From assembly GCA_039923495.1 (NCBI GenBank), contig JBDTCO010000006.1:35066-99065 (forward strand): 64,000 nt of DNA. The letters are read 5' to 3'. Positions within the stretch are counted from its first letter, which is position 1. The number at the start of each line of letters is the position of its first letter. Below, piece after piece: positions 34,174-36,153 of this stretch. Below the pieces are notes generated by a model. It made no database searches and had not been told where the DNA came from. It saw only the letters and a program-made list of their open reading frames with translations. The stretch is from Polyangia bacterium (GTDB lineage Bacteria; Myxococcota_A; Polyangia; Palsa-1104). The translations under genes and the position numbers were made by a program.

Positions 34174-36153
34174 TTAACGTCTAAACATGCCGGGCTTGTA
34201 GGCGACGATCTTGCCCTCGAACGCGGAGGCGGCGACCGTCGATGGGGAGGCGAGGTAGAGCTGGCCAGGGCCCGAGCGGCCCTCGTAGTTGCGGTTGATG
34301 GCGGAGACCGACACCTGGTCGGTGCGCGACGACACGCCGGGGCCGCAGCCGATGCACGCGCCGCAGCCGGGCGGGATGAGCTTCACGCCCGCCTTCTCGA
34401 ACGCGTCGATGTAGCCGCGCTTCCGCGCGTACGCCTCGACGTCGCCGGACCCGAACTGGATGTAGAACTCCACGCCGTCCGCGACCTTCCGACCGTCGGC
34501 GAGCGCGTCGATGCAGACCTCGGCGTAGAGGTCCATGTCGACCTCTTTTCCGGCGGTGCAGGAGCCGCCGTAGGCGATGTCGATCTTGCGATCACCGAGG
34601 TCGCTGATGAACGCGCCGTTGGTGGGATCGCTCGGGATGCCACGGCTCGCGTCGCCGGGCGTGGCCACCATCGGGCGGATGGTCGACAGGTCGATGACGT
34701 GCGTGCCGCCCGCGTACTCCGCGCCCACGTCGGGTGCGAGCGAGCGCGCGCGGAGGTCTTGCACATCGACGCCGGGCCGACGCGCGGCGATCCACGCGAG
34801 GGTCTGATCGTCGACCTCGCACAGGCCGCCTTTGGCTGCGCACTCGGTGGCCATGTTGCACAGCGTGGCGCGCTCGTCGGGGCTGATGCTCGCGAGGCCG
34901 GGGCCGCCGAACTCCATGACGCGATCGAGCGTGAGCTGCTTGCGCGCGTGGTTCGCGAGGATGTGGAGCATCACGTCCTTCGCGGTCACCTGCGGTGACA
35001 GCTTGCCCACGAGCTCGAAGCGGATGGACTCGGGCACGACGACGAACGTGTAGCCGTCGTGAATGAGCGCCGCATACTCGGTGGCGCCGACGCCATACGC
35101 GAGCGCCCCTATGGCGCCCCCCATGCACGTGTGGCTGTCGGTGGCCTGGATGAAGTCACCGGGACGGATGAGCTTCTCGCGCGCGATGGTGTGGCAGATG
35201 CCGGGCGACTTGCCGTCCTTGGCCGAGTAGTCCTTGACGCCGGTCTTCTGCTGGAAGGCGCGCTGCATCTGCCTCAGCACGTTGATCTTGGGGACGAAGG
35301 GCGCCATCTTCGGCACGCCGTCGGCGTAGATGAGGTGGTCCTCGAAGACGGCGAACTGCGACGCCTTCGGCAGCGTGTAGTCGGCGCCGAACTCCTCCTC
35401 GAGGAACGCGTGGACCTGCGCCGTTGTGAACTCGTGCGAGTAGCCGCCGTCGACGGTGACGCGCACGTCGTCGCCGGGCTTGACGTAGGCGCCCGTCTCA
35501 CCGACGAGGCGGCTCGCGAGGATCTTCTCGGCCATCGTCATGAGGCGCTTCGTGGTGGGCGGACGCTCGTGCGTGATCTCGCCGGCCTCGAGCGCCTTGC
35601 CGAACGGGAACAGCCCGCCCGCCATGATCATCTTGCGCGTGAGCGGATCGACGTCGCCGCACAGCTCGGCGATGGGGATCGACTCGCCCGCCTCGAGCCG
35701 CGGCAGCACCGCGTGCCCGGCCATGAGCACGCCCTGGTTGATGTTGTTGCGCGCGTGGATCGGCGCGAACGACGCAGCGACGGCGAGGCGGATGCCCGAC
35801 CACTTCTCGGCCTGCACCGCGGTCTCGCGCGACGAGCCGACGCCCTTGCGGAAGCCCGAGACGATGACCTCGAAGCCGCCGTTCTTGAGCTCGCCGGCCG
35901 AGAAGAGCTTCTTCCCGTTCCACAGGAGGCCGGCATATGCGTTCTCGGCGATGTCGGACGGACGCCAGTCGAAGCACGTCCACGCCGGCGTCATCGCGTC
36001 GGTGTTGATGTCGTCGAGGAGGTCCGCGACCGACAGATCGCGCATGTGCAGCGTGAGCGTGCCCTCGAGCTGCTGACGGATCAGCGCGAAGTCCTTCGTC
36101 AGGTAGAGAACTTTCTTGCCGGGGGTGAGCCGGAAAGCTGCATCGCGCGCCAT
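34174..36153 (-). CDS. aconitase-family Fe-S hydro-lyase with permuted domain order (LeuD-like swivel domain N-terminal, LeuC-like catalytic domains C-terminal)
   Basis: Start MARDAAFRLTPGKK 8 nt after a GAGG RBS; N-terminal GFRKGVGSSRETA (LeuD GSSRE motif); C-terminal GICHTIA, DSHT, GGSCTAG, GCGACIGCG (three cluster-ligating Cys). Confidence 0.75.
   Translation of the reverse strand: MARDAAFRLTPGKKVLYLTKDFALIRQQLEGTLTLHMRDLSVADLLDDINTDAMTPAWTCFDWRPSDIAENAYAGLLWNGKKLFSAGELKNGGFEVIVSGFRKGVGSSRETAVQAEKWSGIRLAVAASFAPIHARNNINQGVLMAGHAVLPRLEAGESIPIAELCGDVDPLTRKMIMAGGLFPFGKALEAGEITHERPPTTKRLMTMAEKILASRLVGETGAYVKPGDDVRVTVDGGYSHEFTTAQVHAFLEEEFGADYTLPKASQFAVFEDHLIYADGVPKMAPFVPKINVLRQMQRAFQQKTGVKDYSAKDGKSPGICHTIAREKLIRPGDFIQATDSHTCMGGAIGALAYGVGATEYAALIHDGYTFVVVPESIRFELVGKLSPQVTAKDVMLHILANHARKQLTLDRVMEFGGPGLASISPDERATLCNMATECAAKGGLCEVDDQTLAWIAARRPGVDVQDLRARSLAPDVGAEYAGGTHVIDLSTIRPMVATPGDASRGIPSDPTNGAFISDLGDRKIDIAYGGSCTAGKEVDMDLYAEVCIDALADGRKVADGVEFYIQFGSGDVEAYARKRGYIDAFEKAGVKLIPPGCGACIGCGPGVSSRTDQVSVSAINRNYEGRSGPGQLYLASPSTVAASAFEGKIVAYKPGMFRR

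Follow-up and report, generated by a model that had tools for sequence, protein, structure and literature searches.

What kind of enzyme is encoded by a compact aconitase-superfamily gene in which the swivel domain stands ahead of the catalytic domains, and in which pathway would it act? The gene in question (34174..36153, minus strand) lies in a window of 64,000 nucleotides, i.e. the whole stretch of Polyangia DNA that was analysed, and an earlier note, made from the letters alone, had described its product as an unusually built protein with the domain order of AcnB.

The open reading frame was complete and encoded a single-chain LeuD-LeuC type aconitase-superfamily hydro-lyase of 659 aa followed by a stop codon, and all five motifs on which the earlier note relied were located in it (GFRKGVGSSRETA at residue 100, GICHTIA at 318, DSHT at 339, GGSCTAG at 529 and GCGACIGCG at 596). 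The ATG start at 36153, and with it the compactness of the chain, is well supported: GC3 dropped from 0.94 within the gene to 0.53 across the 175 nt upstream, a GAGG was present 6 nt ahead of the ATG, the start position was common to 11 homologues, and overlap with the divergent HAD gene is avoided. A 781-aa open reading frame starting at a GTG (36519), in which a HEAT domain could have been hidden, was ruled out by GC3 and by the homologue starts, as well as by its overlap with the HAD gene (36329-36988) and its lack of additional Pfam matches. The divergent intergenic region (36154..36328; GC3-like value 0.53) was non-coding and is the presumed promoter region. No sigma-70 consensus was found in it, the sigma-70 and terminator scans giving nothing beyond shuffled expectation, and the Rfam scan of the whole window retrieved no element, hence no leader or riboswitch.

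Five parts were distinguished along the minus strand. The first 45 residues (36019..36153) formed a family-specific N-terminal extension (consensus R.L.LT.DP.LI..QL.G, with a strand at 14-17 and a helix at 22-29 in the model) that free LeuD does not have. It was followed by a LeuD-type swivel domain (domain 4; residues 46-171; 35641..36018) containing the GSSRE motif, by a helical linker (residues 172-204; 35542..35640) with a near-invariant GGL at 179-181 leading from the swivel to the catalytic domains, and by catalytic domains 1-3 of the LeuC/HacA type (residues 205-651; 34201..35541), within which the codons of the three [4Fe-4S] ligands spanned 34354..34560. HMM mapping confirmed that the swivel comes first: Aconitase_C (PF00694) matched at 93-143 (E 8e-10) and Aconitase (PF00330) at 210-647 (E 3e-86), while among NCBIfam models LEUD_arch covered residues 46-171 and LeuC/HacA large-subunit models covered 205-651. 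The absence of a HEAT-like extension, also claimed beforehand, held as well, the AcnB HEAT domain (PF11791) and the AcnB swivel (PF06434) having no Pfam match at E<0.01 in either the 659-aa or the maximal 781-aa reading frame; PF00694 was the only swivel-type match.

The catalytic equipment is intact by alignment and in the structural model, including cluster ligands, swivel serine and the Asp, His, Arg and Asn residues expected to bind substrate. All active-site residues of mitochondrial aconitase (mAcn) could be mapped (H321, D339/S340/H341, N433/E437, C532/C597/C600, N620/R621/R626, S107/R109), and D272/H273 were also among the active-site residues of the catalytic domains. The three cysteine ligands, Cys532 (34558-34560), Cys597 (34363-34365) and Cys600 (34354-34356, all minus strand), aligned to mAcn C358, C421 and C424 and were invariant across 43 permuted homologues, while in the swivel GSSRE motif Ser107 aligned to mAcn S642, the catalytic base, and Arg109 to R644. 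Sequence alignment of the flexible loop, which defines the small-subunit specificity position, placed Phe61 (35971..35973, minus strand) opposite Val28 of Methanocaldococcus jannaschii LeuD and Arg26 of M. jannaschii HacB (MJ1271). A non-polar residue is thus found where isopropylmalate isomerase (IPMI) has one, and the arginine of the homoaconitase small-subunit loop, which binds the distal carboxylate, is replaced. Phe61 was invariant within the clade and was followed by an Asp; in the other permuted subfamilies the position was mostly aromatic or aliphatic, with some polar exceptions.

The AlphaFold2 model (pLDDT 93, pTM 0.92) had the four-domain aconitase fold, with Foldseek probabilities of 1.00 to HacA, LeuC, AcnB and mAcn. 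On superposition, AcnB aligned over 711 columns, and M. jannaschii HacA (4kp2) was nearer, with a TM of 0.94 and 31% identity; M. jannaschii LeuC was also matched, and the structures closest to the swivel were LeuD-type (2pkp, 3vba, 1v7l). Identities were 28-31% to the large subunits of M. jannaschii (HacA and LeuC), about 25% to mitochondrial aconitase and 20% to AcnB. None of the curated LeuC, LeuD, HacA or IPMI cut-offs was reached, yet homology was clear (E 1e-89): the best score of the LeuC/HacA type was that of PRK00402 (300 bits, cut-off 385), followed by IPMI_arch (263, cut-off 410), leuC TIGR00170 (150, cut-off 560) and LEUD_arch (53, cut-off 109). Models for AcnB (TIGR00117 and NF006690) gave 51.7 bits against 1287 and 89.2 against 782, and those for AcnA and mitochondrial aconitase, in which the order is 1-2-3-linker-4 and not swivel first as here, gave 130-140 bits against cut-offs of 686-945. 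Judged by sequence and by modelled fold, the 659-aa protein is a fusion of an archaeal-type LeuD with a LeuC/HacA, its likeness to AcnB being topological only, and a monomeric [4Fe-4S] hydro-lyase with the swivel fused N-terminally to the large subunit can be predicted with high confidence.

In the window, the aconitase-like gene (ACN) heads a minus-strand operon with the order ACN, thiolase, LeuA-family synthase and small ORF, found likewise in 8 Polyangia loci. The co-transcribed thiolase (397 aa; 32968..34161), whose best model was BktB, begins 12 nt after ACN, and its stop overlaps the GTG start of the synthase (GTGA). This synthase (31679..32971) is a short LeuA-family (HMGL-like) 2-oxoacid:acetyl-CoA synthase without the leucine-binding regulatory domain, equidistant from isopropylmalate synthase (IPMS) and homocitrate synthase (HCS), with NifV homocitrate synthase as top NCBIfam match. 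Its candidacy as an HMG-CoA lyase was rejected, the IPMS/HCS models scoring E 1e-55 and HMG-CoA lyase 6e-06. A conserved 75-aa protein (31430..31657), always encoded after the synthase, had a predicted fold without significant PDB match. On the plus strand, a divergent HAD-IB (MtnX-like) phosphatase gene (36329..36988) was syntenic in Polyangia, and its membership in the ACN system is uncertain. The 64-kb window held no ilv gene, no other leu gene and no LeuB, so that the only LeuA/LeuB-type partner there was the short unclassified LeuA-family synthase.

A LeuB partner was found in other phyla. In 17 of 82 loci, from Vicinamibacteria and Planctomycetota, an Iso_dh gene abutted ACN, and the two representatives tested scored 401 and 404 bits, above the curated LeuB equivalog cut-off (393), compared with 267 bits against a homoisocitrate dehydrogenase cut-off of 540. 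These dehydrogenases bear a hydrophobic ILLGLR or VIMTLR loop at the site where isocitrate dehydrogenase has S-L-N. Distant permuted subfamilies also occurred in LeuA-family/ACN/Iso_dh cassettes, with an aminotransferase at locus L085 and with a fatty acyl-AMP ligase and KAS III at L094, while L087 combined an amino-acid dehydrogenase with a LeuA-family synthase and had no Iso_dh; the synthases of these subfamilies were 45-48% identical to that of the window. Locus gene content was obtained by clustering all GC3-filtered ORFs on these high-GC loci.

As a whole, these observations are probably best explained by a LeuD-LeuC-fused hydro-lyase of the IPMI/homoaconitase branch acting as 2-alkylmalate isomerase in 2-oxoacid elongation, most likely on isopropylmalate, a function that we infer from genomic context and one specificity residue. 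The co-transcribed synthase would condense a 2-oxoacid with acetyl-CoA to a 2-alkylmalate, the fused isomerase would perform the middle step of the elongation by interconverting 2- and 3-alkylmalate through the enoate, the alkyl group being hydrophobic, and the 3-alkylmalate would be oxidatively decarboxylated by a LeuB-type dehydrogenase, whose gene neighbours ACN in other phyla and would lie elsewhere in this genome. The likeliest physiological substrate would be 2-/3-isopropylmalate, for leucine synthesis, and possibly citramalate too. The parts of this proposal differ in strength: a hydrophobic 2-alkylmalate as substrate within a chain-elongation module is likely, and the chances that the protein is specifically the housekeeping IPMI of leucine synthesis are about even.

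The thiolase gene bears on a different possibility, namely that the operon serves a specialised chain-elongation or carbon-routing pathway and not housekeeping leucine synthesis. The fused isomerase, the synthase, the 75-aa protein and the thiolase would then serve to form or break down an unusual 2-oxoacid or acyl-CoA, branched or odd-chain, for example by converting citramalate to 2-oxobutyrate and propionyl-CoA for condensation by the BktB-like thiolase, or by supplying a lipid primer. Thiolase orthologues flanked ACN in three phyla, often together with 3-hydroxyacyl-CoA dehydrogenase (HCDH) and enoyl-CoA hydratase (ECH). In Polyangia, Vicinamibacteria and Planctomycetota, the thiolases adjacent to ACN were mutual closest relatives (50-62% identity, compared with 42-48% to other thiolases of the same loci) and gene orders varied from phylum to phylum, both of which would fit such a pathway. 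Also in its favour are the thiolase, synthase and small ORF kept at locus L088 without ACN, the overlap of thiolase stop and synthase start, the BktB affinity, the missing regulatory domain of the synthase, and the use of related modules in secondary metabolism. On the other hand, ACN stood alone, apart from the module genes, in most Thermoanaerobaculia loci, and L091 had ACN, synthase and small ORF but no thiolase; with 64-92% over four phyla ACN is very highly conserved, and it is mostly single-copy, as would suit a core enzyme of biosynthesis; the neighbouring dehydrogenase exceeds the LeuB threshold; and there is no established chemistry that would need both modules. We regard such a pathway as possible but unlikely. 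For its part, the thiolase linkage in three phyla has no reason in a leucine pathway and counts against the 2-alkylmalate isomerase as favoured above, which also gives the thiolase and the 75-aa protein no role. The same reading is further weakened by the scores below all curated LeuC, LeuD, HacA and IPMI cut-offs, the equal distance of the synthase from IPMS and homocitrate synthase, the lack of ilv and other leu genes in the window, the varied contexts of distant permuted members, and the dependence of the specificity argument on a flexible-loop alignment.

In a broader and somewhat more speculative form, the isomerase and a synthase co-evolving with it, together with a dedicated thiolase and the near-invariant 75-aa protein, might constitute a so far undescribed metabolic module, common to Myxococcota, Acidobacteriota, Planctomycetota and Gemmatimonadota, probably by transfer. 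It might couple thiolase or beta-oxidation-type chemistry to 2-oxoacid elongation, e.g. for branched or odd-chain primers, and the 75-aa protein might serve a synthase deprived of its own regulatory domain as a separable subunit for regulation or scaffolding.

A homoaconitase leading from 2-oxoglutarate to 2-oxoadipate, for lysine or for a catabolic route to glutaryl- or crotonyl-CoA, is very improbable. With E 7e-55, the large subunit of M. jannaschii homoaconitase was indeed the best solved relative, the synthase resembled NifV, and ECH, HCDH and thiolase are crotonyl-CoA-processing enzymes. However, the gap between the HacA and LeuC scores was small (190 vs 168 bits), Phe61 stands in place of Arg26 of HacB, the distal-carboxylate determinant, and the adjacent dehydrogenase, with its hydrophobic substrate loop, passes the LeuB cut-off and not that of homoisocitrate dehydrogenase. 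The complete 2-oxoadipate route (homocitrate to glutaryl-CoA to crotonyl-CoA) was dropped on Phe61 and the LeuB-type neighbour.

Equally improbable is a hydratase only, comparable to maleate, citraconate or dimethylmaleate hydratases, in the catabolism of an unsaturated dicarboxylate. The suggestion comes from permuted homologues (about 40% identity) on Roseomonas and Paraburkholderia megaplasmids, where a true HMG-CoA lyase, a CaiB/BaiF CoA-transferase, a LysR regulator and an MFS transporter form a catabolic-looking set; the HMG-CoA lyase/CoA-transferase context of such distant members indicates that function is not uniform across the swivel-first architecture. The megaplasmid lyases differ, however, from the LeuA-family synthase of the window. 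The ACN clade of the window is only about 40% identical to the megaplasmid proteins, and its link is to a LeuB-type enzyme whose oxidative decarboxylation requires an isomerised 3-alkylmalate.

Least probable of all is a true aconitase acting on citrate and isocitrate as a compact AcnB-like enzyme of the TCA cycle, for although AcnB shares the 4-1-2-3 order over a whole-chain alignment, the 'aconitate hydratase' model PRK07229 reached 268 bits and every aconitase catalytic residue is present, the AcnA and AcnB models fell far under their cut-offs, identity is higher to HacA, Phe61 occupies the position of the homoaconitase gamma-carboxylate-binding Arg, the neighbours are of the LeuB and LeuA types and not citrate synthase or isocitrate dehydrogenase, and the contig of one distant member also bears an ordinary AcnA. 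A pairing of the synthase as Re-citrate synthase with ACN as aconitase was likewise dropped on Phe61 and the LeuB-type neighbour.

The layout proved widespread. Close relatives were present in at least 559 GTDB species of Myxococcota, Acidobacteriota, Planctomycetota and Gemmatimonadota, and the same domain order recurred in over 35 additional clusters at 50% identity, some of them with proteins of cultured Streptomyces, Roseomonas and Paraburkholderia; antibiotic-type gene clusters also contained it. Swivel-first single-chain proteins are thus a large and old radiation within the IPMI/homoaconitase branch, distributed over hundreds of soil-bacterial species. Among split relatives, locus L090, on a short contig, was the sole candidate for a leuD-leuC gene order. 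Published classifications of the superfamily recognise three layouts, with domain 4 N-terminal in AcnB, in AcnX type I and, with some doubt, in fungal IPMI, and the swivel-first LeuD-LeuC layout is absent from them. Literature searches on permuted or fused LeuD-LeuC, unusual aconitases with Re-citrate synthase, thiolase with IPMS in myxobacteria, and chain elongation in BGCs retrieved no account of the architecture, and no characterised member was found. The architecture called unusual in the earlier note is therefore unusual with respect to these classifications and abundant in databases (hundreds of species, dozens of deep subfamilies), where the labels given to relatives do not go beyond 'aconitase family protein' or 'LeuC'. 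Under such labels LeuD seems to be missing, so leucine biosynthesis may be miscounted, or a chain-elongation module overlooked, when pathways are reconstructed for abundant uncultured phyla. In the engineering of 2-oxoacid elongation, a monomeric enzyme of the IPMI type would be convenient, and the linkage to thiolase and small protein, if functional, would point to a new pathway.

In comparison with known systems, the archaeal IPMI and homoaconitase (M. jannaschii MJ0499/MJ1277 and MJ1003/MJ1271) come nearest to both parts of the protein, by sequence as well as by fold, with the same catalytic residues and cluster ligands in LeuC+LeuD and HacA+HacB and with genomic partners of the same kind (a LeuA-family synthase in the window, a LeuB-family dehydrogenase in Vicinamibacteria and Planctomycetota). 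The archaeal enzymes consist of two subunits, whereas the 659-aa protein is one polypeptide that opens with an N-terminal extension of 45 residues, has the small subunit ahead of the large one and connects the two through a helical linker of 33 residues containing the conserved GGL; its specificity residue is hydrophobic as in IPMI, but is a Phe followed by Asp where IPMI has Val. Neither arrangement of IPMI, separate LeuC and LeuD in bacteria and archaea or LeuC-LeuD in fungi, fits a single LeuD-first chain. The fused 1-2-3-4 'Aquifex-type' putative aconitases and fungal Leu1/Lys4 also join LeuC-like and LeuD-like parts in one chain of the same branch, but with the catalytic part first; models of this group gave 268 bits (PRK07229), 218 bits (TIGR01342) and 194 bits (TIGR00139). 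Phylogenetic placement was confined to this distinction: in a rough NJ tree (BLOSUM distances, midpoint root), used solely for grouping permuted and canonical proteins, most permuted proteins fell together, apart from those of canonical order.

A functional parallel is offered by mycoplanecin, in which the IPMS-like synthase MypK and MypL, a LeuD fused to a transaminase that borrows the housekeeping LeuC, elongate non-standard 2-oxoacids (PMC10817943). Comparable cassettes within PKS/NRPS clusters contain distant permuted homologues, whereas the gene of the window lies outside any biosynthetic gene cluster.

The 4-1-2-3 order is not characteristic of AcnB alone, as had been supposed, since AcnX type I is a single chain with domain 4 N-terminal and shares it (PMC8184944); that protein (7cnq) aligned over 690 columns, but with 11-12% identity and a TMq of 0.51, and it belongs to different Pfam families with a different chemistry (a dehydratase acting on an amino acid). 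E. coli AcnB (1L5J) has the same swivel-1-2-3 order and aligned over 711 columns from N- to C-terminus (TMq 0.71), but it carries a HEAT-like domain and an AcnB-type swivel, whereas the 659-aa protein has no HEAT domain, a LeuD-type swivel and another predicted substrate. The AcnB-like reading thus stands for domain order and topology and falls for a specific relationship (52-89 bits against 782-1287, 20% identity). As these low scores and identity coincide with a LeuD-type swivel, the order arose by a leuD-like gene being joined before a leuC-like gene, independently of AcnB, and the layout represents a known enzyme in gene-fused form, new to the published classifications in its domain order, rather than a miniature aconitase B.

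The minus-strand ORF 36153..34174 encoded a 659-aa LeuD-LeuC-type protein of the aconitase superfamily (ACN). Pfam placed Aconitase_C (PF00694) at residues 93-143 and Aconitase (PF00330) at residues 210-647, while NCBIfam assigned residues 46-171 to the archaeal LeuD model (LEUD_arch) and residues 205-651 to LeuC/HacA/isopropylmalate isomerase (IPMI) large-subunit models. The swivel domain thus precedes the catalytic domains, as an earlier note on this sequence had stated, and the five motifs quoted there were all found (residues 100, 318, 339, 529 and 596). The absence of a HEAT extension, also claimed there, was borne out, since the maximal ORF (781 aa, from GTG 36519) contained no extra domain, third-position GC was 0.94 within the gene vs 0.53 in the 175 nt from the ATG to the divergent HAD-phosphatase gene, GAGG preceded the ATG, and the start position was common to eleven homologues. 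Two features were family-specific, a 45-residue N-terminal extension and a helical linker in which a GGL was nearly invariant, and the AlphaFold2 model built from 43 homologues was confident (pLDDT 93, pTM 0.92).

On sequence comparison, homology of ACN to the IPMI/homoaconitase branch was unambiguous. No curated family threshold was reached among the models compared: the top model, PRK00402 (aconitase/3-isopropylmalate dehydratase large subunit family), reached 300 of the 385 bits required, and LEUD_arch 53 of 109. Among solved structures, two Methanocaldococcus jannaschii large subunits matched best, that of homoaconitase at E 7e-55 and that of IPMI at E 3e-48, for which Foldseek gave TM 0.94 and 0.87-0.88 at 28-31% identity; for the N-terminal 200 residues, the best solved matches were small subunits from M. 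jannaschii and P. horikoshii. ACN is a leuD-like gene joined ahead of a leuC-like gene, and this class and architecture are assigned with high confidence.

All but one of the 120 best matches among 5.8 billion proteins (69-93% identity) were 646-697 aa long with PF00694 followed by PF00330, the exception (P0009, 551 aa) having PF00330 only. Scanning one genome per GTDB species revealed close relatives in at least 559 species, the best 80 of which were all MAGs, from Myxococcota (Polyangia, Kofleriaceae), Acidobacteriota (Vicinamibacteria, Thermoanaerobaculia, Holophagales), Planctomycetota and Gemmatimonadota; the nearest relative among the matches listed was in a Myxococcales MAG (92%). Cultured carriers comprised 38 plasmid or chromid records with at least 80% query coverage, including Roseomonas, Paraburkholderia, Caballeronia and Streptomyces, whose homologues NCBI names 'aconitase family protein'. 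The swivel-first (permuted) order recurred in more than 35 further clusters (50%-identity representatives, 29-43% identical, about 580-690 aa). In a rough neighbour-joining tree of the catalytic region, most permuted clusters fell together, apart from stand-alone large subunits and catalytic-first fusions, and two or three seem to have been fused independently. ACN belongs to a large swivel-first branch of the IPMI/homoaconitase family. Its architecture, described as unusual in the earlier note, does lie outside the published swivel-first listing (PMC8184944), but so many species and clusters argue against rarity. No account or assay of a single-chain LeuD-LeuC protein was found in the literature searched.

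Aligned with mitochondrial aconitase, ACN retained all catalytic and cluster residues, namely H147 (H321 in ACN), D165-S166-H167 (D339-S340-H341), N258 and E262 (N433, E437), C358, C421 and C424 (C532, C597, C600), N446, R447 and R452 (N620, R621, R626), and S642 and R644 (S107, R109). Dehydration-rehydration by a Ser base and an Fe-S Lewis acid is the established chemistry of the superfamily and, because the active site is conserved, is predicted with near certainty for ACN. An extra Cys603 (34345-34347), three residues past ligand Cys600, was invariant only in the window's clade. Mutagenesis of M. jannaschii small subunits reportedly showed that HacB Arg26 binds the distal carboxylate and that Val28 of MjLeuD marks IPMI. 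At this specificity position, ACN had Phe61, then Asp62, according to a sequence alignment across a flexible loop. Phe61 was invariant within the window's clade, and other permuted subfamilies had mostly aromatic or aliphatic residues there, with some polar exceptions. Cys60 (35974-35976), directly before Phe61, was conserved in most permuted subfamilies.

ACN was the first gene of a tight minus-strand operon. A BktB-like thiolase (32968-34161) started 12 nt past it, followed by a 430-aa LeuA-family synthase without a regulatory domain (31679..32971), whose GTG start overlapped the thiolase stop, and directly thereafter by a 75-aa ORF (31430-31657). The GTGA overlap (32968-32971) suggests that thiolase and synthase are translationally coupled. 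The four genes and the divergent HAD phosphatase formed the same set in eight Polyangia loci, this and the other context tallies being based on GC3-filtered ORF clustering of 83 loci, not curated annotation. Synteny with other Polyangia reached past the operon on both sides, to a response regulator of 1084 aa containing DUF4388/PatA_N and TPR (40315-43569, minus strand) and two oligopeptide-type ABC ATPases (43585-45584, minus strand) on one side, and to an ECF sigma and anti-sigma pair (28176-28787, plus strand) on the other. Elsewhere the window resembled ordinary myxobacterial chromosome, with genes for a Ser/Thr kinase, an NtrC-type activator, NAD synthase and glutathione synthetase.

In Vicinamibacteria, a LeuB/isocitrate-dehydrogenase-family gene (Iso_dh) lay upstream of ACN (4-nt gap in locus L002), and thiolase, 3-hydroxyacyl-CoA dehydrogenase (HCDH) and enoyl-CoA hydratase (ECH) lay two genes downstream. 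Planctomycetota had the order (HCDH)-ECH-thiolase-ACN-Iso_dh, and most Thermoanaerobaculia had ACN alone. Both Iso_dh representatives exceeded the LeuB equivalog cut-off of 393 bits (401 and 404) and possessed a hydrophobic substrate loop (ILLGLR, VIMTLR), where isopropylmalate dehydrogenase has L-L and isocitrate dehydrogenase S-x-N. Phe61 and the LeuB-type neighbour favour a hydrophobic 2-alkylmalate, so that ACN would serve as the isomerase step of 2-oxoacid elongation, in the simplest case in the leucine (and perhaps also the citramalate) pathway. A hydrophobic chain-elongation role, with this predicted substrate, is probable, and the chances that ACN is a housekeeping leucine IPMI are about even. 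Directly past the LeuB-type gene of a Planctomycetota MAG (L073), a 447-aa ORF (11055-12398, plus strand; partial PF00330 match, E 2e-17) lacked the DSH motif and Cys ligands and hence may be a degenerate aconitase-like pseudoenzyme.

The ACN-adjacent thiolases of three phyla shared 50-62% identity, vs 42-48% to other thiolases of the same loci; those of L002, L007, L016, L046, L064, L073 and the window were mutual closest relatives despite phylum-specific gene order. The leucine pathway offers no explanation for this linkage. The main rival, albeit an unlikely one, is a specialised pathway, which would account for the conserved association with thiolase, HCDH, ECH and the small protein. That ACN is a true aconitase or homoaconitase, as the retained residues and the M. 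jannaschii match might suggest, is highly improbable, citrate and homocitrate being disfavoured by Phe61 and the LeuB-type neighbour, and a hydratase-only function is equally improbable. One locus (L088) had thiolase, synthase and small ORF without ACN, and another (L091) ACN, synthase and small ORF without thiolase. In the latter (4618-7942), the gene caller joined ACN and synthase into a 987-aa 'fusion', probably an artefact given several frameshifts found by tblastn in this nanopore assembly.

Distant permuted subfamilies occurred in two contexts, chain-elongation cassettes and catabolic-looking sets. Among the former, a SARP-PKS cluster (L085) contained LeuA-family synthase/ACN/Iso_dh/aminotransferase, L087 contained amino-acid dehydrogenase/ACN/.../synthase, and an NRPS-PKS cluster on a Streptomyces sp. 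KN37 plasmid (L094; NZ_CP139046.1 396204-412123) contained LeuA family/ACN/Iso_dh/fatty-acyl-AMP ligase/KAS III adjoining two crotonyl-CoA carboxylase/reductases; the L085 and L094 cassettes probably supply elongated 2-oxoacid-derived building blocks. The catabolic-looking sets, in Roseomonas mucosa p1-AD3 (L092) and Paraburkholderia terrae pPT365 (L093), combined permuted homologues (about 40% identity) with a true HMG-CoA lyase, CaiB/BaiF CoA-transferase, LysR regulator and MFS transporter, which implies that the architecture covers more than one function. The Roseomonas 'lyase' gene (751 aa) overlapped the aconitase-like gene.

The cassette synthases were 45-48% identical to the window synthase, far above its ~30% identity to solved isopropylmalate or homocitrate synthases, from which it was equidistant; synthase and fused isomerase thus travel as a pair. 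The 75-aa protein, whose gene always came after that of the synthase, had 1844 homologues with a nearly invariant core of ~55 residues and matched no Pfam or NCBIfam family. Its AlphaFold2 model (pLDDT 81) had a beta-alpha-beta-beta fold without PDB matches below E 0.07, and appeared only vaguely ACT- or Alba-like. Speculatively, it could serve the synthase, which has no regulatory domain of its own, as a regulatory subunit or scaffold. These conserved partners (short synthase, near-invariant 75-aa protein and dedicated thiolase) are a more intriguing lead than ACN itself.

Fungal Leu1 has the order LeuC, then LeuD, and positions 3-453 of 709 of the fungal homoaconitase model TIGR00139 aligned with the catalytic part of ACN. 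In the published classification, swivel-first members are limited to AcnB and AcnX type I, with fungal IPMI as a doubtful third; the inclusion of fungal IPMI among domain-4-N-terminal enzymes in its Introduction is to be treated with caution (PMC8184944). In the superpositions proposed in the earlier note, on AcnB and LeuCD, M. jannaschii large subunits fitted with TM 0.87-0.94, and Escherichia coli AcnB, having the identical domain order, superposed end to end (711 columns, TMq 0.71). The AcnB-like architecture noted earlier therefore stands, but relatedness does not follow, with only 20% identity and AcnB models at 52-89 bits vs cut-offs of 782-1287. AcnX type I also aligned end to end with ACN. 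ACN thus resembles AcnB in topology, not phyletically.
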